Positions 1 to 64,000 of a stretch of DNA of 64,000 nt are shown here, one piece after another (positions within the stretch are counted from its first letter, which is position 1; each line of letters opens with the position of its first letter). The position numbers and the translations under genes are program-made. The stretch spans positions 1,655-65,654 of the forward strand of contig CAIJZX010000014.1 in NCBI GenBank assembly GCA_903825245.1, read 5' to 3'. Source of the stretch: Candidatus Kerfeldbacteria bacterium. GTDB taxonomy: Bacteria; Patescibacteriota; Patescibacteriia; SBBC01; CAIJZX01. The notes under the pieces were generated by a model, which saw nothing but the letters and a program-made list of their open reading frames with translations, did no database searches and was not told where the DNA came from.

Positions 1-1799
1 CCTGCTCCCGGGCCAATGTCGATGAGATAATCAGCGGCCAGCATCGTGTATTCATCGTGTTCTACAACAATCACAGTATTCCCTAAATCGCGTAAGCGAA
101 TGAGTGTTTCGATCAGCTTATCGTTATCGCGTTGGTGGAGACCGATCGACGGTTCATCCAGAATGTAGACCACACCGACCAGTGACGAACCGATTTGCGT
201 CGCCAGGCGAATACGTTGCGCTTCACCCCCAGCCAAGGTCGAAGCAGCGCGATCAAGTGTCAGATAATCAAGTCCGACATCGCTCAAGAAGGTTAATCGA
301 GCGCGAATTTCTTTCAAAATTTGCTTGGCAATCGTCATGTCGCGCGTGGCTAACTGCTTGATACCGGCGATTTTTTTCTCCCCGGCTAAGGCATCAAAAT
401 ATTCACGCGATTGGGCGATGTTCATCGCCGAAACAACGGCAATACTTTTATCGCCAACGGTTACCGCCAACACTTCCGGACGCAAACGCTTTCCCAAACA
501 TATCGGACAAGCAAAGACACGCATGTAACGCTCAATCTCTGCGCGCATGTATTCCGAATCGGTTTCTTTATAGCGCCGCATCAAGTTCGGAATAACGCCT
601 TCGAATGTGGTCATGTATTGCTTAACCTTGCCTTCGCCGCCGGTATTGTTCACGTCGTACGTTTCATCGCCGGTACCGAAGAGAACAAGATTGAGATGTT
701 TTTCCGACATTTTTTCCACCGGTATGCGCGTGGAAAATCCATGCTCGCGGGCAACCGCTTCCAACACCCGGAAATACCACGTTTGATTAGCGCTGGTACG
801 CGACCACGGTCGGATTGCGCCCTCCGCCAAACTGAGGCGTTTATTTGGAATGACGAGATTTTGATCAATCTCCAGTTTTGTCCCGAGACCAGTACAGTCC
901 GGACAAGCACCGTGCGGATTATTGAAGGAAAAGCTCCGCGGTTCAATCGGCGGCATATTTATATTGTCGTAGGGACAGGAAAAATGTTCCGAGAAGAGCA
1001 TGTCCTCGTTCGTATCCTGGCGATTGATGATTACTAAACCGTTGCCTAAGTCGAGCGCGGTTTCAATCGAATCGTAGAGGCGCGTCTTCTTTTCCTTCGT
1101 TTGCTCTTGATCATCAACGCCGATCGTCATTCGATCAACCACAATTTCGACGTTGTGCTTCTTTTGCTTATCGACATTCAAATCTTCTACTTCTTCGAGT
1201 GGTAGAACGTCCTTATCAAATCGCAAACGAACGAAGCCAGCTTTTCGCGCAGAAGCAACTAAGTGTTTGTGCTCGCCACGTTGATCTCGAATGAGCGGCG
1301 CCAAGACCAACACTTTCGTATTTTTCGGCACCGCTAATACTTGGTTCACAATTTGTTCGATCGTTTGCTTCGTCACTGGCCGGCCGCAGATCGGGCAGTG
1401 CGGTATACCGACGCGAGCGTAGAGCAAACGCAGGTAATCATAAATTTCGGTCACCGTTCCGACTGTCGATCGCGGATTATGCGAGGTGGTCTTTTGGTCG
1501 ATGGAAATAGCCGGCGATAAACCGTCGATTTGATCGACGTCCGGTTTATCCATCAACCCCAAGAACTGCCGCGCATATGCCGATAGCGATTCAACGTATC
1601 GTCGTTGCCCTTCAGCGTAGATGGTATCAAAAGCGAGTGACGATTTTCCAGATCCGGATAGACCTGTCATCACCACTAAGGCGTTGCGCGGGATATCGAC
1701 ATCAACGTTTTTTAGGTTGTGCACGCGCGCCCCACGGACGCGAATGAACTCATGCTGTTGAGTTCCGTTTGTTGTCCGCTTTGCTTTTTCCGAGGCCAT
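1..1799 (-). CDS. uvrA: Excinuclease ABC subunit A, N-terminal ~600 aa; the 3' part lies beyond the window start
   Basis: Reverse-strand translation from the ATG at 1797-1799 reads [73 protein letters not shown]..., with the Walker A motif GLSGSGKSS and paired CxxC zinc-finger motifs. It is missing from the ORF track because there is no stop codon inside the window. Confidence 0.9.
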
Positions 1800-1986
1800 A
1801 CTGGTGAAGAAAAAATTGGAAACAAAAGACGCCGCCGAGTATACACCCGATGTCAAGACTGGTCAATGGGTAACCCTCGGCCGACACACGACACACAAAA
1901 TTCGCCAAGAAAACGGCAGATTGTGCTACACTTCACATATGGATCAGCATCGTAGCTATCAGCTCTGGATAAAGGAGCAAGAAACA

Positions 1987-3351
1987 ATGAAAGAGCTCAA
2001 AGCGGCGCGCCCCGAGCTCTTTGAATATGCCGGTGCTTTCACTCATCACGATATTCTCCAATTCATCGGCATTACAAGTATTCCGCCGAATCTGCCCGAC
2101 GGCTACATTCGTTTTCGTCCGGAAGATTTTATCGTTGAAGAAATTGATCCCCAACAGCACGTCCACACGATAGATCTATCGAGTACGACTCCTGTCCAGC
2201 AGGAAGACCAACGCACGCTGTTCTGTGACATGATAAAAATCGGTATTGCCACCCCAGCCGCCTTAGATCGAGTAGCGAATGCGTTTCATCTGGAACCACG
2301 ATTTATTGGTAGTGCTGGGTTAAAAGATGCCGGAGCGATCACCTGCCAACGCATCAGTATCCGCGGTGTCACCATCGAACAGGCGCAAGCAACGGCAATT
2401 GAAAGCATTGTTCTAAAAAATTTCTCCTATGGATCCGGCGCAATCGCTCCCGGCCAACTCGGCGGGAATAGATTTACTCTAACGATCCGAACCGCGTCAC
2501 CCTACAACCAACAACTCCTTGATGAGCAAGTTCGCGAGCTCTCGAAGGGTGTCATGAATTTCTACGGCACCCAACGATTCGGCCATCGTTTTCTCGCCCA
2601 TCATTTCGGTCGCCTACTTTTCCAGGGACATTATGAAACCGTCGTTTCTGATTTTCTCACCTCAACAAACGCTACCGAGCGACGATTTCGATCGGAGATT
2701 CGTGGCCGAGTAAAAGCCTGTTACGGCCAATGGGACGAGGCGGAAAAAATATTCGCCGAATTACCGTATACCTTTCAAAATGAGCTTCGTGCTGTGCGAT
2801 TTCTCAAAGACCATCCGACTGATTGGATCGGGGCAATGATGGCAATTCAAGATCAAACACGAATGTGGATTTATTCATATACGAGTTGGTTAACAAACAT
2901 GTTACTTTCCACATACGCCCTGAAGAAGCAACCGCCGCCAGCGACAATTCCAATTCCTATGAGTCCGGTGGCTACCGATATGGAACCATATCGTCAGTGG
3001 CTTGAACAAGATACTATCCCGAATGATTTTCTCCAGAAACTTCGTCCGTTCGCATTTCTCCGTCCAGGATCGCGCCAACTGCAAAGCGTTATCGTTCCAA
3101 ATTTCCATACGGCCATAGCACACGACCTCGGCGCTTTGTTATCGTTTGATTTACGTCCAGGCGCATATGCCACCACGGTATTAATCAATCTTTTTACGCT
3201 CCACTCAGGACAACCAGCGCCGTCGTGGGTAAAAGATTTACCGATTGACGCACCGAAAATCCTCGGTACTGGGTCGGTCGATGAACTTCGCACGACGTAC
3301 GAAAAGTTTTTTATGAAGAAAACTGTTTCTGAGGTTGAGCTAGAAGCATAA
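1987..3351 (+). CDS. truD: TruD/Pus7-family tRNA pseudouridine synthase (the longest ORF starts at 1804; the ATG at 1987 is preferred)
   Basis: Motifs GLKDAGAITCQ (the TruD catalytic-Asp motif G-x-K-D-x-x-A-x-T) and FYGTQRFG (the NYFGxQRFG signature). The start at 1804 would sit only 5 nt from the divergent uvrA start, whereas the ATG at 1987 is preceded by AAGGAG 9 nt upstream. Confidence 0.6.
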   Translation: MKELKAARPELFEYAGAFTHHDILQFIGITSIPPNLPDGYIRFRPEDFIVEEIDPQQHVHTIDLSSTTPVQQEDQRTLFCDMIKIGIATPAALDRVANAFHLEPRFIGSAGLKDAGAITCQRISIRGVTIEQAQATAIESIVLKNFSYGSGAIAPGQLGGNRFTLTIRTASPYNQQLLDEQVRELSKGVMNFYGTQRFGHRFLAHHFGRLLFQGHYETVVSDFLTSTNATERRFRSEIRGRVKACYGQWDEAEKIFAELPYTFQNELRAVRFLKDHPTDWIGAMMAIQDQTRMWIYSYTSWLTNMLLSTYALKKQPPPATIPIPMSPVATDMEPYRQWLEQDTIPNDFLQKLRPFAFLRPGSRQLQSVIVPNFHTAIAHDLGALLSFDLRPGAYATTVLINLFTLHSGQPAPSWVKDLPIDAPKILGTGSVDELRTTYEKFFMKKTVSEVELEA

Positions 3352-3408
3352 ATGAAAAAGAGCCAGGTGCTTGCGCAGAGCTGGCTCTCGGAAAAGGACG
3401 AACTGCTA

Positions 3409-3975
3409 CTAGGCGTTGGTCGAGACCGGGGTCTCGACGAACTCCATCTCCAGGGTCTCGGTGCCGTCGGGCACGAGCTTCATCCGGCCCGACAGGTTGA
3501 CCGTGACGTTCGGCACGTCTTCGGGACGACGGGTGCGCATGTTCTGCCACACGGTCACGCCACCGAAGCAGGCGTTGAAGAACTCGCGACCGAGCATGAT
3601 CGACTCGTCGGTCAGGAGCGGACGACGTTCGCCGCCCTTGACCATGATCATCTCGGTGACCATGCGCTGCTGCCCCGGCTTGCCGGGCTTGGCTTCGGAC
3701 CGCTTGTGGACCGCGACGATGACCCAGCCCTGCTGTTCGAGCTTCTCGACGAAGCCGACGAGCGACAGGCGCTCGTCCTCGACGACGGGCTTGCCCGTGT
3801 CCAGAACGCCGTAGCGGATGTCGCCGACCTTGACGCCGACGATCTCCGCCTGCTTGGCAATCTCCATCGGCGACGGCATCGAACGCGGGTCGAACTCGTG
3901 CAGACCTTCGGGGTTGTAACCGTATGCCTTGAGACGCATGACCTGCACGGCATCGAAAATCTTGACCGGGTTCAT
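3409..3975 (-). CDS. Hypothetical 188-aa protein in a GC-rich islet (~62 % GC against ~48-50 % in the flanks)
   Basis: A clean ORF whose ATG (3973-3975) is preceded by a perfect AAGGAGG 5 nt upstream, which is atypical for this genome. The overlapping + ORF 3352..4062 is a low-complexity antisense artefact. No family could be recognised. Confidence 0.6.
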   Translation of the reverse strand: MNPVKIFDAVQVMRLKAYGYNPEGLHEFDPRSMPSPMEIAKQAEIVGVKVGDIRYGVLDTGKPVVEDERLSLVGFVEKLEQQGWVIVAVHKRSEAKPGKPGQQRMVTEMIMVKGGERRPLLTDESIMLGREFFNACFGGVTVWQNMRTRRPEDVPNVTVNLSGRMKLVPDGTETLEMEFVETPVSTNA

Positions 3976-4147
3976 CGAAGCCTCCTTCGTAGAGGTGTGC
4001 TACGTGGCACCGACAATCAACTGTCGGCGTTGCTGCGGGAAAAAACCCTAGAAATGTTTTGATGAGCTACCAATTGCTCGACCGAGCAGAATATCACGGC
4101 CATGCCAAAAAGTCAAGACCCATGGCAGAGCATTCCGCTAATCTTAG

Positions 4148-4251: not shown

Positions 4252-4299
4252 TTAGCCATCAAATTTTCGTAACCCCAGACATGTTATACTCTACAAATC

Positions 4300-6111
4300 A
4301 TGGCCGATAATCTCAAAATTGCGTTTAGCCTACCGAAAAAACCCGGCGTCTATCTCTACCACAACGACGAGGACGTTGTGATCTATGTCGGCAAAGCGAT
4401 CAACCTCCGATCGCGGGTTTCGTCATACTTCCGAAAATCGGCCAACCTCCCGCTGGCGAAGCAACTGATGGTCGAACAAATCACCCGCATCGAACACATT
4501 ATTGTTCGTTCGGAAACTGAGGCGCTCCTTCTCGAATCGACGTTAATAAAAAAATATCGTCCGAAATATAATGTTCTGCTCAAGGACGATAAGTTTTTTC
4601 AATACATCAAGATTCACCTCAAGGATCGTTTTCCACAAGTCGAAACCGTGCGCAAAGTCACGATCGACGGTAGTCGCTATTTCGGTCCGTATACCTCCGG
4701 ACTTGCCGTTCGACAAACGATGCGCTTACTGAAACGTTTGTTCCCCTATAAAAGTTGTAATAATGACATAAGCGTTCCCTGTTTTGATTACCAGCTCGGT
4801 CGCTGTCTCGGCCATGACGTTGATCCCAGCAACGAACAGCGGTACCGCGAGGTGATAAAAAAACTCATTACCTTTCTCGAGGGCAACACCGGCACCGTGC
4901 TGACGGAATTGAAAAAAGATATGAAGGTTGCGGCGGCGCGACGTGATTTTGAGAGCGCGGCGCTGTATCGCGATCGCCTCCACGCCTTGCGACACATTAT
5001 CGAACAGCAGACGGTGATCACGCCGCGCCGCGATTCGTTTGATGTTCTCGCCCTCGCCAGGCGCGACGACCTTGCGGCAGTGAATTTATTTCAGGTACGC
5101 CAAGGCAAACTCGTGCAACGCGACCAGTTTATGCTCCAGCACGTCCGCGAACAAAGTGACAGCGATGTTCTGGTGGCGTTCATCGAACAGTACTACAGTC
5201 AATCGACGGTTCATCCGCGGCTCATTATTACACCAGTAACGTTGCCAACCGACAGCGGCAACGGCTTGCAACTCAACATCGTTCGCGCTCAGCGCGGATT
5301 AAAGAAAAAATTAGTCAGCATGGGTACGGAAAACGCCGAAGATTATTTGCGGCGCGAACAGGAACGGTGGATGACGGAAGAATCGAAAGCAAAACTCGGA
5401 CTTGAGGAATTAGCGCGCGCGTTGCGATTAGATGAACCGCCGAAAAGGATTGAAATGTACGATATTTCGCATTTCCAGAGTACCAACGTCGTCGGTTCGA
5501 TGGTGGTGTTCGAAAACGGCCTACCAAAAAAATCTGATTACCGAAAATTCACTATTCGCGACACCACGATTCCTGACGATCAACACCGATTAGCCGAGGT
5601 GGTACGACGAAGATTTAGCCACCACACTCATAATGAAGATGAATCGGCCCCCTCCTCAGCGAGGAGGGGTGTAGGGGTGGTCAACGACGCATGGCCCACG
5701 CCCGACCTTCTCCTCCTCGACGGCGGCAAAGGCCAACTCTCTGTCGTCACGAAGAATGTGCCGGGATTACTGCAACATATTCGCGTCGCCGCATTAGCTA
5801 AGGAAAATGAAGAGCTCTTTGTGCCCGGAAAATCATCGCCGATTCGCCTACCGGAAGGATCACAGGAGCTTTTTCTCATCCAACGGATTCGCGATGAAGC
5901 CCATCGATTTGCTATCGGCTTCTATCGGAAAAAACATCGTCGCGAAACAACGAAATCAATTCTCGATGAAATCCCCGGCCTCGGTGCGAAGCAACGACAG
6001 GCTCTCCTCAAAACATTCGGTACGCTCGATGGTATTCGCACGGCTGATGAAGAGCAGATTGCAGAAATTGTCGGAGGTCGATTGGCCAAAACGATTCTAG
6101 CGAGAATATAA
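4300..6111 (+). CDS. uvrC: Excinuclease ABC subunit C
   Basis: N-terminal GIY-YIG motifs (VYLYHNDEDVVIYVGKAINLRSRV), the conserved WPTPDLLLLDGGKGQL motif and a C-terminal HhH region. An extended -10 (TGtTATACT, 4282-4290) ends 9 nt before the ATG, which suggests a leaderless mRNA. Confidence 0.92.
   Translation: MADNLKIAFSLPKKPGVYLYHNDEDVVIYVGKAINLRSRVSSYFRKSANLPLAKQLMVEQITRIEHIIVRSETEALLLESTLIKKYRPKYNVLLKDDKFFQYIKIHLKDRFPQVETVRKVTIDGSRYFGPYTSGLAVRQTMRLLKRLFPYKSCNNDISVPCFDYQLGRCLGHDVDPSNEQRYREVIKKLITFLEGNTGTVLTELKKDMKVAAARRDFESAALYRDRLHALRHIIEQQTVITPRRDSFDVLALARRDDLAAVNLFQVRQGKLVQRDQFMLQHVREQSDSDVLVAFIEQYYSQSTVHPRLIITPVTLPTDSGNGLQLNIVRAQRGLKKKLVSMGTENAEDYLRREQERWMTEESKAKLGLEELARALRLDEPPKRIEMYDISHFQSTNVVGSMVVFENGLPKKSDYRKFTIRDTTIPDDQHRLAEVVRRRFSHHTHNEDESAPSSARRGVGVVNDAWPTPDLLLLDGGKGQLSVVTKNVPGLLQHIRVAALAKENEELFVPGKSSPIRLPEGSQELFLIQRIRDEAHRFAIGFYRKKHRRETTKSILDEIPGLGAKQRQALLKTFGTLDGIRTADEEQIAEIVGGRLAKTILARI
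5646..5680. repeat. GA-rich palindromic element (GGCCCCCTCCTC-AGC-GAGGAGGGGT-GTAGGGG) inserted in-frame inside uvrC
   Basis: Perfect 9-bp stem CCCCTCCTC/GAGGAGGGG at 5649-5669. The same ~38-nt element recurs in intergenic DNA at 27294-27335 and, in extended form, at 32708-32803. Within uvrC it encodes ...ESAPSSARRGVGVV... just before the conserved WPTPDLLLLDGG motif. Confidence 0.7.
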
Positions 6112-9742: not shown

Positions 9743-10012
9743 TTATGCCGCTCTGACTTTTGCCGAAGCAGCTGCCTCTGCTCGCTCACGCACCCGTTGA
9801 CGGTGACCTTTGGCACCCTCATTCCTGGGATCACAGTAGAATTCCAGGGCTTCTTTCTGATCCGGTGAATGGCCGAGTACAAGCCCGGCAAAATACCGAT
9901 TGTCGTCGCCAAGCGCCTCTACAACTTGTTCGAGCAAATCGACCATCTGCTTGAGCTGCCTGTTCTCGCGCTGGAGAGCCTCCACATCAACCAATGGTTG
10001 AGCGGATTCCAC
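9743..10012 (-). CDS. Hypothetical small coiled-coil protein (89 aa, GTG start) in a GC-rich patch
   Basis: GTG start preceded by AAGGAGG at a 5-nt spacing. N-terminal heptad-like VEALQRENRQLKQMVDLLEQVVEAL. Local GC is about 58 %. The gene has its own promoter and terminator. Confidence 0.55.
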   Translation of the reverse strand: MESAQPLVDVEALQRENRQLKQMVDLLEQVVEALGDDNRYFAGLVLGHSPDQKEALEFYCDPRNEGAKGHRQRVRERAEAAASAKVRAA

Positions 10013-10056
10013 GGTGGCCTCCTTTTTTAAGGCTCAGGGGAAACACAACCTTTTAT

Positions 10057-20608: not shown

Positions 20609-20637
20609 TTGAACGGTGAGGAATAAAATGGTATAAT
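20609..20637 (+). promoter_or_regulatory. Consensus promoter TTGAAC-N17-TATAAT (extended -10 TGgTATAAT) ending 6 nt before the lgt ATG, implying a leaderless mRNA
   Basis: Hexamers at 20609-20614 and 20632-20637, lgt ATG at 20644, and no SD. Confidence 0.5.
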
Positions 20638-20643
20638 TCGCAC

Positions 20644-21450
20644 ATGTTTCTTCATACCTGGCATCCACACCCGCTCGCCGCCACGATCGCCAATATCCAA
20701 CTCCACTGGTACGGTGTTCTCTTAGCCGTCGCTGCTTTGGCCGGGATTGGTATGATGGAATGGCTAGGGAAAAAATACCGACTTGATACCAATCGTTTAT
20801 TTGATTTGGCGCTTATCACCCTCGTGGTCGGGTTCATTGGGGCGCGACTGTATCACGTCTTAAACGAACTGACATACTATCAGACCCATTTATCCGATAT
20901 TTTCAAAGTCTGGAATGGTGGCTTAGCGCTTCATGGGGGCATTGTTGCTGGTGGCGCGGCTTTATTCTTTTTCGCGCGACGTTGGAAGTGGAATCCGTGG
21001 TTGATTGCTGATATTACAGTCCCGGCACTAGCGATCGGGCAAGCAATCGGCCGCTGGGGAAATTATTTCAATCAGGAGCTGTTCGGTAAACCAACCTCAC
21101 TGCCGTGGGGAATTCCGATTGATCTCATGAACCGCCAATCGCCATTCTTGACCGAACAGTTTTTCCATCCGACATTTTTGTACGAATCGCTTGGCCTATT
21201 AATCATCACCGTCGGATTGTTCTTGATGCATCGACGCCAGTGGACAACAAAAGGTGTGAAAGCGGGAACGATAACCCTCGCCTACATTATTTCATACTCA
21301 GCATTGCGAATGGCGACAGAATTTTTACGCATCGATCGCACGCCGATCATCGGCGGTATTCGTTTACCAATCCTCGTCAGCGGCCTCTTTATTCTCGCCG
21401 CAATTGTCATCCTTGTTATCCGCAATCGCCACCATGCAAAAACTGTTTGA
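20644..21450 (+). CDS. lgt: Prolipoprotein diacylglyceryl transferase
   Basis: LHWYG, GARLYHV and the GGLALHGG signature. Multi-TM, 268 aa. Confidence 0.9.
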   Translation: MFLHTWHPHPLAATIANIQLHWYGVLLAVAALAGIGMMEWLGKKYRLDTNRLFDLALITLVVGFIGARLYHVLNELTYYQTHLSDIFKVWNGGLALHGGIVAGGAALFFFARRWKWNPWLIADITVPALAIGQAIGRWGNYFNQELFGKPTSLPWGIPIDLMNRQSPFLTEQFFHPTFLYESLGLLIITVGLFLMHRRQWTTKGVKAGTITLAYIISYSALRMATEFLRIDRTPIIGGIRLPILVSGLFILAAIVILVIRNRHHAKTV

Positions 21451-23914: not shown

Positions 23915-24499
23915 TTAGGGTGCCGGACTTTTTGCCATCAGCAGGAAATTGTTGACGATCGTTTTATCGAACGGCACATCAACGATCACCAGGAGATTCC
24001 CCTGACTATCGGGAATTCCATGAATGACTACCTTGACATTGGTCGGCCAACGCTGTTCGCCGATTTGCGTGAGGGTTATCCGTACGCCGTTTTCCCTTTG
24101 AAAAGGGTGACCGTGACTATCAAGCACCTGGAACGCAATGGTCATCGCATGGTGGGTAATAAATCCAGGTATCCACGTCATCCGATGAACCGCAACGGAA
24201 TCAATCGGGAAGCGCGTCAGCAAAAAATGTTCTTCGTCTGACACATACTTGTCGTTCGACTCCGAATGGAGAACCATGGTGGCCCAATATTCCGGCAACC
24301 ACTCGTGTTTACCGAATTGCTTGAGCACCAACTCGACGGTACCGTCCGAAGATTGCAACGCTTTCCCCGACTGGTCGGTGATAATAACACCGATTGTGGT
24401 CGGCACCATTTTGATACGGTGCGCCTTGTGTGCCGAAACCGGTGATACGAAGATTATTAGGCCGCAGAACAACGCGGCCACGAACATCGTGCAACGCAT
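23915..24499 (-). CDS. Secreted hypothetical protein (start chosen at MRCTMFVAALFCGLIIFVSPVSA; the longest ORF reaches 24571)
   Basis: A signal-peptide-like N-terminus. The ATG at 24497-24499 is preceded by GGAGG at a 6-nt spacing. Confidence 0.5.
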   Translation of the reverse strand: MRCTMFVAALFCGLIIFVSPVSAHKAHRIKMVPTTIGVIITDQSGKALQSSDGTVELVLKQFGKHEWLPEYWATMVLHSESNDKYVSDEEHFLLTRFPIDSVAVHRMTWIPGFITHHAMTIAFQVLDSHGHPFQRENGVRITLTQIGEQRWPTNVKVVIHGIPDSQGNLLVIVDVPFDKTIVNNFLLMAKSPAP

Positions 24500-24587
24500 T
24501 GTCTGCCTCCGCTGGTGAAAGGAACAGTACTTCGATGGGCGCATCCTATCCGTCTCTGAGCAGAAAGTCAAATAAAAACGCGGGTCG

Positions 24588-24986: not shown

Positions 24987-25000
24987 GAGCGTGGTAGTAT
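24972..25000 (+). promoter_or_regulatory. Candidate promoter TTGATT-N17-TAGTAT (extended TG) giving a leaderless IMPase mRNA
   Basis: The -10 hexamer ends at 25000 and the ATG is at 25009. The longest-ORF start (GTG at 24991) lies inside the promoter. Confidence 0.45.
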
Positions 25001-25008
25001 CGTGGCCT

Positions 25009-36084: not shown

Positions 36085-36141
36085 AAAAGAAATACTGTTC
36101 TGTCACAATTCATCGCTTTACGCGAAGAGAGGAGCAGCATA

Positions 36142-36697: not shown

Positions 36698-36737
36698 AAA
36701 TTGTAAAAACCGTTCATTCCAACTGAAGGAGAGTGCT

Positions 36738-37421: not shown

Positions 37422-37448
37422 CCTCACCCCTCACACAAGGAGCCGCAC

Positions 37449-37730: not shown

Positions 37731-37750
37731 CCTTCGGGTTAGTTTTTTTT
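37727..37750 (+). terminator. Rho-independent terminator CTAACC-TTCG-GGTTAG followed by T8 at the end of the island; it overlaps the stop of the convergent RodZ-like gene
   Basis: A 6-bp stem with a TTCG tetraloop and eight T residues on the + strand. Confidence 0.6.
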
Positions 37751-38411: not shown

Positions 38412-40768
38412 CCCGTTACGTCGTTGTTATCTTCACTCGGCTCCTCAATAACTTCTTCCGGTTGCGTAGGCGGCACATCATCATCGATTGGCAAATCACG
38501 CGGATCAACCGGCACCCCGGCAGCTGCAGACGTAGAATTAGAACCTGCGTCACGCTCAGTTGAACCTGCGATGGAATCTGTTGAGCCATAAATTTCTCGC
38601 GGTTTTGCGCCCATGCCCGGACCGATAAATCCTTGCTGCTCGAGAAGATCCATAATACGCGCAGCACGCGCATACCCAAGACGTAAATGGCGTTGCAAGA
38701 GCGTCGTCGAGGCTTTTCCGGTTTGCAGAATAATATCTCGCGCCTGACCAAGAAGCTCATCATCACCTAGGTCTTCCAGGCTACCGCCGATTTGTGGCGC
38801 TGGCTTATCGACAATGTCGGTCATGTAATCCGGCTTACCGCGTTGCTTGAGGTATTGCGTGACGCGTTCGACTTCTTTTTCCGAAACGTAGGCACCCTGA
38901 AGTCGCTTTGGTTTTGAGAGTTCAGCTGACATGTAGAGCATGTCACCCTTACCAAGGAGTTTTTCCGCACCCGAGGTATCAAGAATAGTGCGCGAATCAA
39001 TTTGCGAAGCCACACTGAAAGCTGCACGAGCCGTCACGTTAGCTTTTATTAAACCAGTGATGACGTCAACTGATGGTCGTTGGGTCGCTAAGACCAAGTG
39101 AATGCCGACCGCGCGAGCCATTTGCGCTAAACGAACAATCGCCGCTTCAACTTCCTTCGCCGCCACGGTCATTAAATCAGCTAACTCATCAATAATAACC
39201 ACGATGTATGGCATATCGTCGCTCACTTCTTTGCGGTACGAAGAAATATTCCGCTTCCCAGCATTCTGTAATACTTGATAGCGTCGATCCATTTCCGATA
39301 CGACCCAGCGCAAGGCGTTAATGGTCTTCGTGGTGTCGGTAATAACTGGCGTTAGCAAGTGCGGAATATCGTTGTACAGCGATAATTCGACACGCTTCGG
39401 GTCGACAAGAATCAGCTTTAAATCATCCGGCGAATTACTAAAGAGCAAGCTTAAAATTAAACTATTAATTTGCACCGATTTTCCTGAACCGGTTGCACCG
39501 GCGATCAATAAGTGCGGCAACGGTTCGAGATTGGCGACCCATGGTGCACCGGACACATCTTTACCAAGACTGAAGCTCAAATCCGATTTGCGCATGCGGA
39601 ACGCATCGGATGACAAAATCTCGCGGAGATTGACAATAGCCACGCTCTGGTTCGGCACTTCAATACCGACCAGTGACTTGCCCGGAATTGGCGCCTCAAT
39701 ACGAATTGGGTGCGCTGCTAGCGCCAAGGCTAAGTCGTTACTCAGTGAAGCAATTTGTGCTAGACGCACGCCCTCAGCTGGTTTCAGTGTGAACTGCGTA
39801 ACCGTTGGACCAACGTTGACGTCGCCCATTTCAACCGAGATACCAAAAGTTTCTAGCGCCCGTCTGATTTTTTCTTTATTGGCCTCGATGTTACCGCTCG
39901 TTGGTTTGCCGCCCGAAAGATCAAGTAAATCAAATGGGATAACGATGTGCCGTTTCTCCCTCTTCGGTTTCGGCGGTAATGGAACCATTTCTTCTTCGAC
40001 GTGTTCACCGCTAGCGCTTTCCGTTTTTACATCGGAAATTTCCTGTTTGGTAAATTCTGGATCTTGTGCGCCGTTAGCGTCATCAATCACGTCTTGGTCG
40101 TTCGCGTCATGAGCGAGTTTTCGCTGCCACCATCGATTGCGCATCCAAGCCATAAACCACGCCGGGAGATTTGCTTGTTGGCCAAGCCCCTTGAGCGATG
40201 TATTAAACATGATGAGTAAGCCGATCAAGAACAAACCAACCATAATCACGCCGGCGGCAGCCGCGCCAAGGCCCTGGCGCAATGGGTAATCCATCAACAC
40301 GCCGAGATACCCGCCGCCATCGCCGTTGATTGCTCGCGCGACTGAATCGCCGATCGGTAAGAATAACTGCATAATCCCGGCGAGGCTGAATACCGAAATA
40401 CCAAAGCCGATCCACTGCGCGATGGTGATGTGGAATTTTTCCGGAAACAGCAGGTAAATACCGATGACGGCGAGGTAAACCCACAGCACATACCGCTGCC
40501 AGCCGACTAAGGTGCCGAGTCCCCGACCGAGCGCGCCGCCGCCGGTACTAGCGTGGTTAAAGACGCTCAATCCGATAACCGCCGCGGCCAAAAAAAGAAT
40601 GACGATCGTAATCGCCCGACGTGTTTCTGGGGTAAGTTTCGGCATCGGCAATTCAGCTGGTGCGCGCCGTTCCGATTTCTCGTTGCCCCTGGCGCGTGAA
40701 CGCCTGCTGGATCGTGTCGACTGAGCCATAGAAGTGCTAACTATAGCATAAATGCGAAGGTTCGACAA
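38408..40768 (-). CDS. ftsK: DNA translocase FtsK/SpoIIIE
   Basis: N-terminal TM helices, a Pro/charged linker, a motor domain with Walker A GATGSGKSV, and a C-terminal gamma (winged-helix) domain. Confidence 0.9.
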   Translation of the reverse strand: MSNLRIYAIVSTSMAQSTRSSRRSRARGNEKSERRAPAELPMPKLTPETRRAITIVILFLAAAVIGLSVFNHASTGGGALGRGLGTLVGWQRYVLWVYLAVIGIYLLFPEKFHITIAQWIGFGISVFSLAGIMQLFLPIGDSVARAINGDGGGYLGVLMDYPLRQGLGAAAAGVIMVGLFLIGLLIMFNTSLKGLGQQANLPAWFMAWMRNRWWQRKLAHDANDQDVIDDANGAQDPEFTKQEISDVKTESASGEHVEEEMVPLPPKPKREKRHIVIPFDLLDLSGGKPTSGNIEANKEKIRRALETFGISVEMGDVNVGPTVTQFTLKPAEGVRLAQIASLSNDLALALAAHPIRIEAPIPGKSLVGIEVPNQSVAIVNLREILSSDAFRMRKSDLSFSLGKDVSGAPWVANLEPLPHLLIAGATGSGKSVQINSLILSLLFSNSPDDLKLILVDPKRVELSLYNDIPHLLTPVITDTTKTINALRWVVSEMDRRYQVLQNAGKRNISSYRKEVSDDMPYIVVIIDELADLMTVAAKEVEAAIVRLAQMARAVGIHLVLATQRPSVDVITGLIKANVTARAAFSVASQIDSRTILDTSGAEKLLGKGDMLYMSAELSKPKRLQGAYVSEKEVERVTQYLKQRGKPDYMTDIVDKPAPQIGGSLEDLGDDELLGQARDIILQTGKASTTLLQRHLRLGYARAARIMDLLEQQGFIGPGMGAKPREIYGSTDSIAGSTERDAGSNSTSAAAGVPVDPRDLPIDDDVPPTQPEEVIEEPSEDNNDVTG

Positions 40769-40804: not shown

Positions 40805-43800
40805 TTAATTCACCCAGAAATGCACCACTGGACTCAGCGTCGTATTTCCCGCATAGTCGTATGCTTCTACTTGTAGCGTATGCGATGAGCCCGGGGCAAA
40901 GGCGTTCGTATAAGTTAACTGTAATGTATAAGGTGCGCCAACGTATGTGAAGGGACAGTAGTGAATACTTGGTAACGTACAATCGAAGTAGAACCGCGAA
41001 CTCGCAACACCAACGTTATCTGTGATATTTGCCTTGAATACCGATGGATACGCCGTCGGATTCCCATCCTTGGGAGAGATAATGCTCACTACGGGTGGCG
41101 TTGTGTCTGTTCCACCAAACACCGTAAATGAAACTGAGGCCGAACTTGTTTTTAATCCAGAATTACTTACCGCCACGGCATATCCGGATAGATTAGTCGG
41201 GGTAAGGTAATGTGATACATCAAAAGCCGCAGCATATGGCGCTGTCGTATCGGTTGCGAACGGCGTTGTTTGTCCTTGAAGGTAGAATTCAACTTGCTTA
41301 ATGCCGTCGGGTACACTCGCTGAAGCGGAGAAGTTAAGTACGCCAGCGTAGGGTTGTCCAGCCAGGGGCGATGTAAGGGCAACGGTAGGTGGCGGAAGTG
41401 GGGCCGCGGTGATGTTAACAGTAAGCGACTGACTTTGTTGTCCTCCATCAGTAGCCCAAATCGTTGCGGACTTTGTCTTCCCAAGATCTGCGGCGGTCGG
41501 CGTCCACGTCAAGGTAGCGCTCGTCGAATTAAAGGTTACCCCGGATGGTAAAGCGGTTGCCACATATGTCACGGCAGTTCCATCCGGATCTGTTGCGTGG
41601 ACTTGAACAGAAAAAGGTATGCCGACGTATGCCGTCTGACTTGGTGTTGTATCGAAAACCGGTGGCGGGTTTGCCGATGGCGTGGTGAAGTTCATCACTT
41701 TCATATTTTGACACCAGTAGTTTGCTGTGCCATTACCGTAGCCTGTCCATATAGTCCCGTACATATTATACGTATATGTCGTGTTGGGAGCGACGAGAAA
41801 TGTCACCACCGGCGTCATACCAGAAAACGTTATGGCTGGATTGAGAAGTTGATCGCTGGAAGTTGTACATTTGCCATCGCTTGTACAAGAGCGGACACGA
41901 AAATGTTTTAATTTACCATTAACCGCCGAGTTGTTAATTTCAACTTGATGACCCTTCTCTTGATAAGATGCATGCTGTGTATAGCCATAATTTGTATCTA
42001 GACCATATTCAACTGTTGTATCTGAATTGATGTCGGTCGACCAATTCACCCGACCTTCATAACTAAGACCTGGCGCGGCAGGCATCCATGAAATACCCGA
42101 TATTACTGGAGCACCGAGAGTTGAGGATTCTGACTGAGAGTACCAAGGCAGTAAAACTGCATATCCCGTCGTTTGTTTCGCATCGCAAGACCATGCAACC
42201 GTCGCTTTGTCCCCTGTGAAGAATACTCGTGGAGCTGGCGGGCTTTGCATGCCGGGTGTAGTAATTTCCAAAATTGTACTTTGTGTGCACAATTGATTCT
42301 GAGCAGGTATTGTTGTGTTACAGGACATTATTCTAGTCAAATAGGTTGTACTCGGACTTACGGGAAGTATCATGGAATGGTGTGTTACCGCTCCGGCAGG
42401 ATCTGGGTAAGTATAAGTGCCCATCCCCGGAACCGTTAAATAACTAGTACCAACAGACGGAATATCTGTATCCCAACTCACTTGCACCGCATATGGCCAT
42501 TGGTCCAAAATAAGTTTTACGGCATAATTTGATAGTGCTGGAGGCGGAGGAAGCGCTGGGGTGGTTATTATTTGGTCACTCGTTGAGGAACAGGTTTTCG
42601 GACTACCAGTCGTACATGAGGTTAATTTATAGTGGTACGTGGTGCCGGGTTCTGTCGCGAAGTCCCACCTATGCGACGTCAGCGACTCACTAACATAATA
42701 CGTTGTGCCATACTCGGTTGTGGTTCCGAGGTCAATTTGTTTGTCGGCTGGCCTACTCGTTGTCCAAGTGACCCCTGAATAAGTAAGTGTTGTGTATGAG
42801 GTAATTGCAGAAATTGCCAAGGCTGACTGATTATTAAATGCGATTGGGATTGCCTTGGTGCTAGTGAGACCACCGGGGTCTACAACCATAAACTCCGGAG
42901 CATAAATACCGCTTGCTTGTGTCGCATCTGGCGTCCAGGAAAATGTTTTGTTCGTTGCATTATAGGTCGAGCCAACAGGTTTACTGCTTTCCACAACACT
43001 AATGGTTAAGTCCGAGGCAGCAGTGTTTGCGTCTGAAGCGGTAACGGTAAACGTCGCGGTACTGCCATAGTTTATTCGTGGCGGATCGACATGATTAATA
43101 TATGGCACGCCAAATTGGAGAACCGTAATAATCGGACTTGTGTTATCGGTTTCAAACGGTTCCGAATAACGGTTATCAGGGTCCATCACAATTTTTACAT
43201 GAGTTGGCATGGTTATTCCGGAAGGAACGGTAACAGTATCGACGAGTGAACCACCAGAACCGCCATTCAAGTAATACACAAATCCGTTGTACACCGTGGT
43301 GTTGGTATCTGTGTTGATAATACGATATGGCACATTCTTCGCGCTCGTCCAACCAGCATTATCGACCCACAAATCCAAACCGAGTTTATTGCTCCCTTTA
43401 TCCACCACGGGCTGGCTTCCCGCCATCGCAGCAAATGATGTAAACGAGAAATCTGGTCGACGGTCGAAGGCTTGTTTCACTGCTGCTTGGGCATTGACTA
43501 GGCCGTAGCCGGAATATTGGTTCCACGTTCCGGGGAAGTTTTGCAGCACACCGCTCTCGTCAGTCACATCATGCATTGTTGTGGCGGTTGTTTCCAAAAT
43601 TTGCTTTATATCGTATAGACTTAACGCCGGGTTGACGGATTTTATGAGACCAACGATACCGCTGACAATTGGCGCTGCAAAGCTTGTTCCTTCATCATAG
43701 AAAAAGTATTGATTGCTCCCAGTACCACTCAAGTTTTGCACCGCTCCGCAAGTATCATGATAATAGATTGGCTCAATACACTTTGTTACATCGTCAAGAA

Positions 43801-45451
43801 GTGGTCGTTGATCGTATGATAAAGTTGATGAATAACTTCGCGCAGCAACTCCTAAGATGTCTGCACTCGGTGCCATAATGTCAATTTGTGACCCATAATT
43901 TGAACCTTTCTTTTGCCCCAAAAAATTTGTATACAACCAACGCCCTTTGTCCGGCTGCACACCACCAACAAGAATAACGTTTTCATTCGTTTGTGGCTGT
44001 AGACCTGAACCATCTAGCTGAATATCGTCATTACCAGTCGCTGTGACAAGTGCCGTACCCGCCGCAGCACTATCTTCGAGAGCTACGCTGATGAGGTAGT
44101 TGTCCGATTGTTGACTATACCAGCTCATGTTTATCACATCTGCGCCATTGTTGGTTGCATATCGAATAGCGGCTGCAAGTGTTGTCGACGTATTCACCAC
44201 ACCGTCACTATTCTGTGCCACAACTGGCATCAACGTACAATTTGGACATATACCAGCCATTCCATATGGCTGCACGGTGTCGGTGTTTGCAACAGCAACA
44301 CTCGCCACAATACTTCCGTGGTGAGTCGTATCAGTGGGACCCTGAGTTGGATTATTTTGTAGACTGTTCGTGGCGGTGGCGTAGTCGAAATTCATGCCAT
44401 TGATATCATCAATGTACCCATTGCCATCGTTATCTTTTCCATCGACATCGCCGCCAATGTTAACTGATTTTCCATAGCAATCTAGGTGCGTTGAAAAATC
44501 GGTGCTCGGCCAATAATCCGCACAACCATTATGGTTGATATCTTCTAGGCTATTGAGCCAGATTCTATTCTGAAATTCAGGATGAGAATAGTCTATCCCC
44601 GAATCAACAATGGCAATGATTGTTGCTGGACTACCTTTGGTAATCGCCCAAGCCGACTGAACATTTACAGCACTAAGGTCCCACTGGTTGGGCACGGCGC
44701 TATTTTCGCCCGTACTATCATCAAGGTACCCAATAGTACACGAATACGGATCATTCGGATTGGTACAACCGGTGGCTGTTGCACCGCTTTCGCCACCGCC
44801 AGTTTCCCCTCCGGCTACCGGAGCTGTCGTTTTTACAGAGTCAAGCGTAGAAAAGCCATTGGCGCTCGCCGATTCCACATTTCCCTTATCAGACTTCAAT
44901 TGTTGCACCATCTGCGCCACATCCGCATCCACTTCGGTTGTTGTTAAGACGTACCACTGTCCCATCCCGAGCTTGTCGTAAGTCACGTTCGGATCCTTAG
45001 CATCTTTCCTGGCAAGGATCTTATTCTTGACGTCATCAGCAATTATTACCTTTGGAAAGACTTGTTGGATGTTCTTTTGGTGTAGAGTGAGAGTTTGTTG
45101 GGTGAAGCTCTTGGGGATAGCTTTGACTGACGTATCCGAACTCGGTACCAGTTTTCCGGTTTTTGTATTTTTATAAACCGTTTGCTTTTTTGTTAGCAGT
45201 TTTGAAACAACTTCCGTCGGATTTTTTCCCGCCTTTATCTTAAAAACAACCTGCGCAGGAGCGTAGGTACCAGCGGTAAGGGGTTGAAGTGGTGGAAGTA
45301 CCTGTTGGTTCATAGCGCTCGGCAAAAGAATCGCAGCAAACGCTAAAACAGCGGCACCAGCCGTTAGGCTGATGATACTAAGCGCTCGACGTGTGCCGAG
45401 ACGTTCGGATATTTTTTCACGCAGGGTTGCCACTTGTTCGGTTGCTTTCAT
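40805..45451 (-). CDS. Giant (1548 aa) membrane-anchored/secreted subtilisin-like S8 serine peptidase with multiple Ig/FN3-like beta-domains
   Basis: N-terminal TM anchor. The catalytic triad sits in IVDSGIDYSHPEF (Asp), HGSIVASVAVAN (His) and GTSFAAPIVSGIVG (Ser), and is followed by ~800 aa of Thr/Ser/Gly-rich beta-repeat domains. Confidence 0.85.
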   Translation of the reverse strand: MKATEQVATLREKISERLGTRRALSIISLTAGAAVLAFAAILLPSAMNQQVLPPLQPLTAGTYAPAQVVFKIKAGKNPTEVVSKLLTKKQTVYKNTKTGKLVPSSDTSVKAIPKSFTQQTLTLHQKNIQQVFPKVIIADDVKNKILARKDAKDPNVTYDKLGMGQWYVLTTTEVDADVAQMVQQLKSDKGNVESASANGFSTLDSVKTTAPVAGGETGGGESGATATGCTNPNDPYSCTIGYLDDSTGENSAVPNQWDLSAVNVQSAWAITKGSPATIIAIVDSGIDYSHPEFQNRIWLNSLEDINHNGCADYWPSTDFSTHLDCYGKSVNIGGDVDGKDNDGNGYIDDINGMNFDYATATNSLQNNPTQGPTDTTHHGSIVASVAVANTDTVQPYGMAGICPNCTLMPVVAQNSDGVVNTSTTLAAAIRYATNNGADVINMSWYSQQSDNYLISVALEDSAAAGTALVTATGNDDIQLDGSGLQPQTNENVILVGGVQPDKGRWLYTNFLGQKKGSNYGSQIDIMAPSADILGVAARSYSSTLSYDQRPLLDDVTKCIEPIYYHDTCGAVQNLSGTGSNQYFFYDEGTSFAAPIVSGIVGLIKSVNPALSLYDIKQILETTATTMHDVTDESGVLQNFPGTWNQYSGYGLVNAQAAVKQAFDRRPDFSFTSFAAMAGSQPVVDKGSNKLGLDLWVDNAGWTSAKNVPYRIINTDTNTTVYNGFVYYLNGGSGGSLVDTVTVPSGITMPTHVKIVMDPDNRYSEPFETDNTSPIITVLQFGVPYINHVDPPRINYGSTATFTVTASDANTAASDLTISVVESSKPVGSTYNATNKTFSWTPDATQASGIYAPEFMVVDPGGLTSTKAIPIAFNNQSALAISAITSYTTLTYSGVTWTTSRPADKQIDLGTTTEYGTTYYVSESLTSHRWDFATEPGTTYHYKLTSCTTGSPKTCSSTSDQIITTPALPPPPALSNYAVKLILDQWPYAVQVSWDTDIPSVGTSYLTVPGMGTYTYPDPAGAVTHHSMILPVSPSTTYLTRIMSCNTTIPAQNQLCTQSTILEITTPGMQSPPAPRVFFTGDKATVAWSCDAKQTTGYAVLLPWYSQSESSTLGAPVISGISWMPAAPGLSYEGRVNWSTDINSDTTVEYGLDTNYGYTQHASYQEKGHQVEINNSAVNGKLKHFRVRSCTSDGKCTTSSDQLLNPAITFSGMTPVVTFLVAPNTTYTYNMYGTIWTGYGNGTANYWCQNMKVMNFTTPSANPPPVFDTTPSQTAYVGIPFSVQVHATDPDGTAVTYVATALPSGVTFNSTSATLTWTPTAADLGKTKSATIWATDGGQQSQSLTVNITAAPLPPPTVALTSPLAGQPYAGVLNFSASASVPDGIKQVEFYLQGQTTPFATDTTAPYAAAFDVSHYLTPTNLSGYAVAVSNSGLKTSSASVSFTVFGGTDTTPPVVSIISPKDGNPTAYPSVFKANITDNVGVASSRFYFDCTLPSIHYCPFTYVGAPYTLQLTYTNAFAPGSSHTLQVEAYDYAGNTTLSPVVHFWVN

Positions 45452-45494
45452 CCTTGTTGTGGGTTTCGACGAAAATACTTTTATTTCTCAGAGT

Positions 45495-45523
45495 ATTATA
45501 TCAAAAAAAGTTGTGTTTGTCAA
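45495..45523 (-). promoter_or_regulatory. Perfect-consensus promoter TTGACA-N17-TATAAT (- strand) for the S8 peptidase gene
   Basis: Read on the reverse strand: TTGACAaacacaactttttttgaTATAAT, about 37 nt upstream of the ATG at 45451. Confidence 0.5.
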
Positions 45524-62201: not shown

Positions 62202-62295
62202 GGAAATTTACATCTTCAGCATACTGAATTTTACTAGAAAAGGGAAGGGGTTGTCCATAGTCGCAATTGAGACGGTATGATAGGCTGTTATCACT

Positions 62296-64000
62296 ATGCC
62301 CAGCACCACGTTTCAACTTGTTTCGCCATTCTCACCCACCGGTGACCAGCCCCAAGCTATTGAACAATTGCTCTCCGGCATCGCCAAAAAACAGGAGGCG
62401 CAAACCATTTTAGGTGTCACCGGTTCGGGAAAAACGTTTACCATGGCTAACGTCATCGCGAAGTTGAATCGGCCAACGCTGATCATTTCACATAATAAAA
62501 CGTTGGCGGCGCAATTGGCTAGCGAGTTTAAAGACTTCTTCCCGCATAACGCCGTGAATTACTTTGTTTCGTATTACGATTACTACCAGCCAGAGGCCTA
62601 CATGCCACAAAAAGATCTGTATATTGAAAAAGAGTCACAAATCAACGAAGAAATTGATCGCTTACGCAATGCCGCTACACGCGACCTACTCACTCGCCGC
62701 GATGTCATTATTGTCGCTTCAGTTTCGTGCATCTACGGATTAGGAAACCCGACCACCTACCAACAAGCTGCCATCGCTCTGCAACACGGCCAAAAAATTT
62801 CCCGAACAGCGCTCTTACGCCAACTGAATCTCGCCTTGTACCAACGGAATGATTACGACTTCGTACGCGGCACCTATCGCGTTCGCGGTGATAACATCGA
62901 TGTGTCCCCAGCGTACACACAGGATATTTTACGCATTGAACTGGATGATGACGTCATCAGCGGACTTTCCACGGTAGACCCGCTGACCGGACGAGTAACA
63001 GAAAAAATGGATCAGGCCACGGTATTCCCTGGCCGACAGTTTGTTACCCAACAAGATCAGCTACCACAAATAGCCGAAGCGATCCGTGCGGAACTTAAAA
63101 CGCGTGTGGCCGAATTTGAAAAACTTCACAAACCGCTCGAAGCCGAACGAATCGCCCAGCGAACGAATTTCGACTTGGAAATGCTCCTCGCCACTGGTGT
63201 CACCAGTGGTATTGAAAATTACTCACGTTTCTTTGATTTTCGACAGGCCGGTCAGCCGCCGTCAACGCTCCTCGATTACTTCCCGAAGGATTTCTTGCTC
63301 TTCATTGATGAGTCGCATATGACCCTACCGCAGCTGCGGGCGATGTACGAAGGTGACAAGGCTCGAAAAACAACATTAGTAGATTACGGGTTTCGTTTGC
63401 CATCAGCCATGGACAACCGACCACTGAAATTTGAAGAATTTCTCGGTCGTATTAGTCAACGTATTTTTGTGTCCGCTACGCCGTCCGTATACGAAATTGA
63501 ACATTCGCAGCAAGTTGTCGAACAACTCATTCGTCCCACCGGCCTCCTTGATCCACAAATTGACGTCCGACCGACCAAACATCAAATCGACGACGTCCTG
63601 AAGGAAATTCAATCCGTCACCGGCCGCGGACAGCGTGTGCTCATCACCACGCTGACCAAGCGTATGTCCGAAGATCTAACCGAGTACTTACAGGAGCTGA
63701 AAATAAAGGTCCAGTATTTGCATTCCGACGTCGAAACGTTTGAACGTCTAGAAATACTCCGCGATTTGCGCCTTGGTGTCTACGATGTTCTTATTGGTAT
63801 CAATTTACTCCGTGAAGGATTAGATTTGCCAGAGGTTTCGTTAGTGATTATACTCGACGCTGATAAAGAAGGATTCTTACGTTCAGAAACAGCTTTAATG
63901 CAAACCATGGGGCGCGCCGCGCGTCACGTTGAAGGACGGGTCGTTATGTATGCCGACCGTATGACTGGTTCCATGCAACGCGCCATTGATGAAACCATTC
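62296..64000 (+). CDS. uvrB: Excinuclease ABC subunit B (N-terminal ~568 aa; continues beyond the window end)
   Basis: [17 protein letters not shown] (Walker A), DESHMTLPQ (DExH) and helicase motifs through ...[17 protein letters not shown]. No stop codon falls inside the window. Confidence 0.92.

Follow-up and report, generated by a model that had tools for sequence, protein, structure and literature searches.

How does translation begin in a lineage whose core genes almost all lack a Shine-Dalgarno (SD) motif, and what are the few genes that do carry one? The question is raised by a 64,000-nt stretch of a Candidatus Kerfeldbacteria genome (contig CAIJZX010000014.1; the whole stretch is called the window below), in which twelve orphan open reading frames (ORFs), eight of them in an island operon flanked by recA and a rodZ-like gene, have strong SD motifs and conserved genes with few exceptions do not. 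The reading that we favour, with a probability of about 0.6, is that conserved genes by default initiate translation independently of an SD, the anti-SD being kept for a small, flexible and compositionally atypical gene pool and, weakly, for recA. An earlier note on the same DNA had described the two styles of initiation and had taken SD presence as a marker of foreign DNA.

Strong SD motifs separate orphan ORFs from core genes

We searched all candidate ORFs against Pfam, which gave a map of 39 supported genes, and scored the -20..-1 region of each start by its duplex energy with ACCUCCUUU, a strong SD being defined as dG <= -7.5 kcal/mol. By this measure all 12 orphan ORFs have a strong SD as against 1 of the 39 Pfam-supported genes (Fisher p=8e-11). 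The orphan energies range from -7.5 to -12.2 kcal/mol and stem from AAGGAGG, AGGAGG, GGAGG or AAGGAG motifs at a spacing of 4-7 nt, and nearly all core genes are weaker than -4 kcal/mol. Four of the orphans are singletons on the reverse strand and eight lie on the forward strand at 32996-37730 (Table 1). Another four ORFs without a Pfam match sit inside core operons (30797, 55085, 56663 and 56989) and have no SD, so that the SD follows atypical composition and not the mere absence of annotation.

The SDs that the earlier note had placed ahead of 3409..3975, 9743..10012, 23915..24499 and all island ORFs are indeed there. Its statement that core genes have none stands in so far as a single gene of the 39 is strong, namely rpoB with a G-rich GGGGG, and has to be softened for the weak AAGGA of recA, the GGAG of ruvA and of the gene for a substrate-binding protein (SBP), and the AAGGAG of a candidate truD start at ATG 1987. 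The recA motif lies at 32576-32580 on the reverse strand with a spacing of 8 nt, behind a perfect TTGACA (32656-32661)-17-TATCAT (32633-32638) promoter and in a leader of ~59 nt (5' region 32567..32661); AAGGA or GAGGA is kept 7-9 nt before the ATG in five lineages (the window and the loci L086, L092, L004 and L001). As judged from this conservation, recA is a core gene that does appear to use an SD-like element.

Since the orphan starts might have been picked for having an SD, we also applied start rules that are blind to it. With the first ATG of each ORF, a strong SD was found for 7/12 orphans and 1/39 core genes (p=5e-5), and with the most-upstream start for 5/12 and 2/39 (p=0.005). In a motif-first test, 16 of 87 GGAGG occurrences were followed within 4-10 nt by a start codon opening at least 50 codons, compared with 2-8% for permuted 5-mers, which is a 3-fold enrichment.

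SD-led genes are atypical in codon usage, and some are shared with relatives

When SD presence was set against codon usage, as the earlier note had proposed, the SD-bearing ORFs stood apart. Their GC content at third codon positions (GC3) is 0.70 (0.52-0.89) compared with 0.52 (0.38-0.66) in core genes, and the AAG/GAG/CAG fraction is 0.64 compared with 0.33 (p=3e-6 for both). This is one support for reading the SD-bearing ORFs as recent imports from an SD-using, GC-richer donor, with the SD and the GC-rich codons as unameliorated baggage that has no role in the recipient; the favoured AAG/GAG/CAG codons are opposite to those of the ribosomal-protein genes. Two more observations agree with it, namely that at the same site the window and the relative L086 differ in island content and that SD-led non-conserved ORFs of relatives are slightly enriched in GC3 (p=4e-4) and in AAG/GAG/CAG (p=0.0025). 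We nevertheless consider import in this form unlikely.

Two orphan genes have orthologues usable for a check of SD conservation. In L089 the orthologue of 3409..3975 (631-1197) lies between truD and uvrC, the same locus as in the window. The two proteins are 67% identical, a divergence like that of the core neighbours (flanking UvrC 77%, TruD fragment 62%); GC3 is 0.94 in the L089 gene and 0.54-0.58 in the genes flanking it. The last 45 nt of the leader are nearly identical, including GAAGGAGGCTTCG-ATG, and the promoter is kept as TTGACA-17-TATTAT. So extreme a synonymous composition (GC3 0.89 and 0.94) is kept across speciation, with a protein divergence like that of the neighbours. The second case comes from L086, which is syntenic over ychF...rpsF-ssb-rpsR-efp-recA-[variable segment]-HTH_25 and has, at the same recA/HTH_25 site, a 3.4-kb segment of mostly other genes with one gene common to the window island. 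In the window this gene is 36738..37421; its L086 orthologue is 71% identical and keeps AAGGAG 5-7 nt from the ATG in a leader that is otherwise unalignable. Other L086 island genes carry AGGAGG or AGGAG and the L086 core genes do not; the GC3 of the L086 island equals that of the L086 core, so these genes match their genome in GC3 and still carry SDs.

An SD kept together with its leader in L089, and kept in an unalignable leader in L086, points to maintenance by selection, and the presence of two SD-led genes at the same loci in diverged relatives suggests that some of these genes are long-term residents. Both points speak for a functional anti-SD and against the notion of unameliorated baggage. 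The higher-GC, SD-using donor that the earlier note had suggested did not turn up either. The SD-led genes have no match in Pfam or PHROGs, IMG/VR scans for three of them and a Joint Genome Institute (JGI) metagenome scan for the 3409..3975 family gave no match, and they are near-orphans: word-indexed searches of 5.8 billion proteins (5.8e9) returned one to three relatives and an exhaustive HMMER search of 1.84 billion representatives (1.84e9) returned 4 for 3409..3975, with no donor homologue outside the lineage among these 1-4 relatives. The L089 and L086 orthologues stand in syntenic contexts of CPR (Candidate Phyla Radiation) type, L090 is unclassified, and P0007-P0009 have no context. As for mobility, Pfam, PHROG, tRNA and repeat checks revealed no integrase, no flanking tRNA and no flanking direct or att-type repeats at the island, its repeats being internal. 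The SD-led genes would thus be long-term residents or a lineage-restricted flexible pool with a selected SD, and not simply unameliorated imports. The earlier view of the SD as a sign of foreign DNA is therefore partly supported, as a useful correlate that is not established as history.

Conserved genes lack SD motifs across the sampled Patescibacteria

We assembled 80 glyA-anchored Patescibacteria loci, calling genes conserved if they had matches in at least 3 other loci and non-conserved if they had none, and set the conserved starts from alignments. Among 627 conserved genes, 8-13% reach dG <= -5 and 1-2% reach dG <= -7.5, for a random background of 16.5% and 3%. The SD-less style thus extends beyond the one genome of the earlier note to the loci sampled, where conserved genes are at or below background. 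With the most-upstream start, dG <= -7.5 is reached by 17% of the non-conserved ORFs in the closest relatives (p=4.5e-5) and by 6.7% in the remaining loci (p=1e-5), and many of these ORFs have a textbook AAGGAGGT at a spacing of 5-8 nt. The same scoring of 65 annotated Escherichia coli genes gave 83% (dG <= -5) and 26% (dG <= -7.5). A recA-anchored metagenome scan returned many non-CPR loci, which we therefore used as internal controls and not as relatives; under the identical pipeline 11.5% and 1.1% were obtained for the 17 closest, CPR-like loci, compared with 39.6% and 20.4% for the more distant ones, which are largely non-CPR (p=7.5e-7). In three other Patescibacteria loci we also noticed clusters of non-conserved small ORFs with AAGGAGG(T), at ~15.3-16.2 kb of L023, 6.9-8.3 kb of L038 and 17.5-19.5 kb of L016, which include paralogue pairs and lipoprotein-like N-termini and have conserved neighbours without SD.

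Such depletion would also follow if the anti-SD had been lost in the lineage, the orphan SD motifs being non-functional and marking poorly translated relics or serving another purpose such as RNA structure. Conserved genes are indeed poor in upstream SD-like or G-rich sequence, with conserved starts G-depleted at -1..-15, and the non-coding DNA of the island is rich in GGAGG/CCTCC hairpins. CCTCCT is missing in about half of the Parcubacteria 16S genes, overlapping the group that lacks uL1 (Tsurumaki et al., 2022; PMC9297842). We give this explanation little credence, however, because the motifs lie precisely 4-7 nt from start codons, are conserved in orthologues where the neighbouring sequence is not, persist before recA in five lineages and, as GGAGG, are enriched before a start plus ORF.

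A third possibility is that SDs and GC3-rich codons mark very highly expressed native genes through translational selection, irrespective of core status. The presumed highly expressed core genes rpsR, trpS, rpoB and efp do share with the SD-led genes a raised GC3 and a preference for C-ending two-fold codons. For Lys, Glu and Gln the choice is opposite, AAA/GAA/CAA in these core genes and AAG/GAG/CAG in the SD-led genes, so that SD-led codon usage cannot be an exaggerated native translational bias, and we rejected that candidate. As, in addition, ribosomal-protein genes, efp and rpoBC have no SD themselves (the G-rich GGGGG of rpoB aside) and relatives either lack the orphan SD-led genes or vary in them, high expression appears a very improbable explanation. 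Least probable of all is an artefact of start picking, of orphan ORFs that are not genes and of mis-assigned core starts: the SD-linked start is neither the most-upstream start nor the first ATG in 5/12 orphans and most orphans have no homologues, but the contrast is significant under SD-blind rules and in the motif-first test, many core starts are backed by relatives whose alignments start at their residue 1, an independent gene caller picked 3409..3975 and the same uvrC start, and the pipeline does find SDs in E. coli and non-CPR loci.

Candidate routes to SD-less initiation

In the reading that we favour, SD-independent initiation would be the default for the conserved genes of this Kerfeldbacteria-like Patescibacteria/CPR genome and would follow three routes. 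The first would be taken by the first genes of some transcription units, in which an (extended) -10 box precedes the ATG by 6-10 nt, so that the mRNA would be leaderless or nearly so; lgt, uvrC, the IMPase gene, the RNA methyltransferase gene and ftsK are the candidates, and truD, secG and the 56663 ORF may be further members. With a -10 hexamer required to match at at least 5 of 6 positions, including A2 and T6, and to end 4-11 nt before the start, 5 of 43 core genes have such a box as compared with 2.2% of random positions (binomial p=0.0025). All leaderless candidates have an ATG start and a dG > -3.1 kcal/mol, and in relatives the distance of the -10 box peaks at d=6. The motifs that the earlier note had quoted for uvrC, lgt, IMPase and the RNA methyltransferase are all present, that of the methyltransferase one base off (28603-28608, not 28604-28609), and its proposal of a leaderless geometry for several core genes is borne out by these counts and by orthologues. 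The promoter-to-ATG arrangement of lgt is, by position of its boxes, a canonical predicted leaderless geometry, and its orthologues have TATACT at d=6 (L003) and TGcTACACT at d=7 (L010); lgt of L001 is without it, so conservation is not universal. The RNA methyltransferase orthologues of L086, L096 and L010 have TACAAT or TATAAT 6-8 nt before the ATG, and uvrC of L089 has TGgTATACT ending 6 nt before it. Such conserved geometry supports leaderless starts without proving them.

For secG and the 56663 ORF (9 nt), a promoter scan of first-in-operon genes points to possible near-leaderless starts. The truD gene has a candidate leaderless start at ATG 1939 and alternative starts at GTG 1804 and ATG 1987 (AAGGAG, spacing 9), of which ATG 1939 or ATG 1987 is more likely to be the true start than GTG 1804. 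The uvrA ATG (1799, reverse strand) and the start of the longest truD ORF (GTG 1804, forward strand) are just 4 nt apart.

The second route would serve operon-internal core genes, whose starts lie between -17 and +32 nt of the preceding stop, an arrangement compatible with termination-reinitiation or coupling; the rpsF-ssb-rpsR-efp operon is an example (Table 1). The third would be that of leadered core mRNAs with G-poor leaders and no SD, as proposed for the S8 protease, uvrA, LVIVD protein and rpsF genes, in the last three of which the -10 box ends 38, 35 and 135 nt, respectively, before the start codon. The S8 protease is a 1548-aa subtilase with Ig-like domains and is probably a strongly transcribed surface protease.

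The minority genes, by comparison, would have canonical -35/-10 promoters, 40-150 nt of leader and a well-spaced, strong SD, and would be lineage-restricted orphans for small membrane or secreted proteins, rich in GC3 and in AAG/GAG/CAG. The ribosome would most likely retain a working anti-SD, which we infer rather than read from 16S rRNA: no rRNA gene was found in the window (Rfam) or in any of the 170 fetched loci (motif scans). The SD would mark a flexible, atypical gene pool and be selected there, as a correlate of non-core status and not a clock-like mark of import.

Several points weigh against this interpretation. Leaderless status is predicted from promoter geometry only, and several of the -10 boxes lie 8-10 nt, not 6-7 nt, from the ATG. 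Most island ORFs are without homologues, and their coding status is judged from ORF length, GC3, transmembrane (TM)-like sequence and the SD. A few of the SD-led 'non-conserved' ORFs of relatives are ordinary enzymes and not orphans, the two classes being crude and set by matches among the fetched loci, and the sample consists of 64 kb plus ~2.5 Mb of fragments rather than of whole genomes. With CCTCCT missing in so many Parcubacteria 16S genes (PMC9297842), a functional anti-SD in this lineage is likewise something we infer.

Table 1. Start regions and other features of the window; energies are duplex energies in kcal/mol
Feature	Coordinates	Strand	Description
SD-led orphan 3409..3975	3409..4116	-	188 aa, GC3 0.89; SD AAGGAGG 3981-3987, spacing 5
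SD-led orphan 9743..10012	9743..10024	-	89 aa, GTG start; SD AAGGAGG 10018-10024, spacing 5
SD-led orphan 23915..24499	23915..24510	-	194 aa, secreted-type, N-terminal signal-like helix; SD GGAGG 24506-24510, spacing 6
SD-led orphan 24588..24854	24588..24863	-	88 aa; SD GGAGG 24859-24863, spacing 4
Island operon	32815..37744	+	4.9 kb, eight SD-led ORFs, between recA and rodZ-like HTH_25 gene
Island ORF	32996-33205	+	SD 32986-32991
Island ORF	33749-33949	+	SD 33738-33742
Island ORF	34367-34615	+	SD 34355-34360
Island ORF	34746-35105	+	SD 34736-34740
Island ORF	35509-35967	+	SD 35496-35501
Island ORF	36142-36570	+	SD 36130-36134
Island ORF	36738-37421	+	SD 36726-36731
Island ORF	37449-37730	+	SD 37437-37442
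lgt, candidate leaderless	20632..20646	+	TGgTATAAT (hexamer 20632-20637) ending 6 nt before ATG 20644; -35-like TTGAAC 17 nt upstream
uvrC, candidate leaderless	4285..4302	+	TGtTATACT (4285-4290) ending 9 nt before ATG 4300; no SD
IMPase, candidate leaderless	24995..25011	+	TGgTAGTAT (24995-25000) ending 8 nt before ATG 25009; TTGATT -35 at 17 nt
RNA methyltransferase (UPF0020), candidate leaderless	28592..28608	-	TATACT 28603-28608 ending 8 nt before ATG 28594
ftsK, candidate leaderless	40727..40745	-	TGcTATAGT (40740-40745) ending 10 nt before ATG 40729
truD, candidate leaderless start	1927..1941	+	TGcTACACT (1927-1932) ending 6 nt before ATG 1939
S8 protease gene	40805..45500	-	perfect TTGACA-17-TGnTATAAT; -10 ends 43 nt before ATG, leader ~36 nt; no properly spaced SD
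rpsF-ssb-rpsR-efp operon	28831..30644	+	internal genes split by 13-32 nt G-poor spacers, no SD
rpoB, core exception			dG -9.7; G-rich GGGGG
ruvA, core exception			dG -7.0; GGAG
SBP gene, core exception			dG -6.2; GGAG
recA, core exception			dG -5.9; AAGGA
Mur ligase, core exception			dG -5.9; GGAG, 16 nt before ATG
truD (GTG 1804), core exception			dG -5.9; GAGG

The SD-led singletons and the island operon

A promoter scan found the promoters of the SD-led genes to be canonical, with a good -35 box and a true leader. That of 3409..3975 consists of TTGACT (4111-4116), a 17-nt gap and TATTCT (4088-4093), the -10 box ending 112 nt upstream of the start and leaving a leader of ~105 nt; for 9743..10012 and 23915..24499 the distance from the -10 end to the start codon is ~43-44 nt. 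The 3409..3975 leader contains a conserved hairpin (CCGACAGTTGATTGTCGG) and possibly also a CCUCU/GGAGG stem that would sequester the SD, and its fold is not significantly better than that of shuffled sequences (z=-1.2). An AlphaFold model of the protein has a predicted local distance difference test (pLDDT) score of 49. We rejected the overlapping 3352..4062(+) as the true gene in place of 3409..3975(-), since the reverse-strand frame has the GC3 of 0.89, is the choice of the independent caller and aligns to its orthologue without gaps.

The island is read as one operon, from a TTGACA-17-TATACT promoter at 32815-32843 to a terminator hairpin at 37725-37744, and each of its ORFs has an SD 4-7 nt before the start. 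The products are predicted to be small proteins with 1-3 hydrophobic helices, together with a soluble protein of 152 aa and, from 36738-37421, a GNAT-like one. A repeat of ~135 nt occurs at 33228-33361, 33582-33713 and 33984-34117, and in part at 32947-32970. Its copies open with a GAGGGAGG/CCTCCC hairpin and are each followed by a small, SD-bearing two-TM ORF, a layout resembling a tandem cassette array. The repeat is not present in the relative L086. A second repeated motif, TCTCACTCGAG...CAAGTGAGAAAAC with pairable arms, is found at 34660-34707, 35164-35215, 36038-36087 and 36637-36700, 40-60 nt ahead of the SDs that belong to the 34746, 35251/35509, 36142 and 36738 ORFs; it may act as an RNA element, an operator or an internal promoter. 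The interval that separates the divergent promoters of recA and the island holds, at 32704-32809, a long GA-rich/CT-rich hairpin in which GGAGG and CCTCC abound (DNA fold z=-2.85). This long hairpin accounts for the result of Rfam searches with permissive thresholds on the island and the 3409..3975 leader, in which we obtained only sub-threshold miRNA-like matches.

Host lineage and gene map

The glyA product, scanned against GTDB species genomes, returned only Patescibacteria/CPR relatives, the top one a Candidatus Kerfeldbacteria metagenome-assembled genome (MAG) at 80% identity, and an identical uvrC protein was found on ENA metagenome contigs. GC content is ~50% along the whole length of the window. 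The Pfam-supported genes are uvrA, truD, uvrC, secG, the SBP_bac_5 protein and HAD hydrolase genes, rnj (10371-12137), trpS, two polysaccharide deacetylase/GT2 genes, an alpha/beta hydrolase gene, the LVIVD surface protein gene, murI, glmM, lgt, glyA, folD, the IMPase gene, ychF, the UPF0020 RNA methyltransferase gene, rpsF, ssb, rpsR, efp, recA, the gene for the rodZ-like HTH_25 protein, ftsK, the S8 protease gene, rpoC, rpoB, def, and genes for a Nudix protein, a Mur ligase, an RNase T-like exonuclease and a nucleotidyl transferase, together with femAB, ruvA, an FG-GAP protein gene and uvrB. Two tRNA genes are present: tRNA-Leu(CAG) at 8906-8992, directly 5' of the HAD hydrolase gene, with the GTG 9000 of that gene 8 nt past the tRNA, and tRNA-Arg(CCG) at 58879-58953, directly 5' of the nucleotidyl-transferase gene. 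Both protein genes may be co-transcribed with the adjoining tRNAs, which would add a further SD-less context.

Relation to known systems and implications

SD-independent initiation is known from Bacteroidota (Flavobacterium johnsoniae) and Cyanobacteria, which keep the anti-SD and have few SD genes. As there, conserved genes of the window are SD-less with G-poor upstream regions and an SD-bearing minority exists. The minority differs, consisting in Bacteroidota of regulatory core genes such as rpsU and in the window of lineage-specific atypical orphans, with a weak SD on recA. In Bacteroidota the anti-SD is sequestered by bS21/bS18/bS6. Parcubacteria often lack bS21 (PMC9297842).

Leaderless mRNAs have been described in Mycobacterium tuberculosis (Cortes et al., 2013, as cited in PMC12641261). 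The leaderless genes of Actinobacteria and Deinococcus-Thermus resemble our candidates in a -10 box 6-7 nt before the ATG, in the exclusive use of AUG and in coexistence with leadered genes. Their leadered genes mostly use an SD, however, whereas the leadered and operon-internal core genes of the window have none, and leaderless genes are recognised here by promoter geometry. Termination-reinitiation or translational coupling of overlapping or adjacent genes would suit the many core genes that start -17 to +14 nt from an upstream stop, including ATGA/TAATG-type overlaps at 13230, 38411, 53803, 54345 and 55085; it would cover operon-internal genes only and is suggested in the window by gene spacing.

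Anti-SD loss in Parcubacteria (PMC9297842) falls within the same superphylum and suggests that CPR ribosomes make weakened use of SD/anti-SD pairing, although that study dealt with 16S 3' ends and not with mRNA starts, and the loss is confined to the uL1-lacking subgroup. The well-spaced, conserved SDs on some window genes suggest that this lineage still makes use of its anti-SD. YchF, whose gene lies in the window, is conserved in CPR and has been linked to leaderless translation (PMC12641178). As in genomic islands and flexible hot spots, content between recA and the rodZ-like gene is variable, with atypical GC3 and codons and orphan genes. The segment is unlike typical islands in having no integrase, flanking tRNA or att-like repeats, in being a single promoter-to-terminator operon with internal repeats, and in sharing at least one gene with a diverged relative at the same site.

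A search of one full-text library found no paper that treats SD usage or leaderless initiation for the mRNAs of CPR; the one related study concerned 16S anti-SD loss in some Parcubacteria. SD-poor lineages and leaderless mRNAs are already known from other phyla; the twist is that extreme GC3 and a strong SD are kept on orphan genes across speciation. It is tempting to extend our reading to all Patescibacteria, whose conserved genes would have shifted to leaderless, coupled or unstructured-leader initiation and in which the SD/anti-SD channel would then serve almost solely fast-turnover, lineage-specific genes of distinct composition, which code for small membrane or secreted proteins, and a few stress genes such as recA. 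We regard this extension as doubtful. If it were true, SD strength would be a separately regulated translation channel of the flexible genome, the survival of the anti-SD in an SD-poor lineage would be explained, and the GC3 of ~0.9 that one SD-led gene has retained through speciation would be due to selection linked with that channel.

SD-led starts are presupposed both by gene callers and in the design of expression vectors. If CPR core genes are SD-less and partly leaderless, this would have consequences for the annotation of start codons in thousands of MAGs, for how genetic tools are designed for those few CPR that can be cultivated and for the way in which their reduced ribosomes are read. 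A strong SD on atypical orphan genes would be a cheap, testable marker of the flexible genome, and its association with orphans offers a handle on why the anti-SD is kept though most genes do not use SD pairing.

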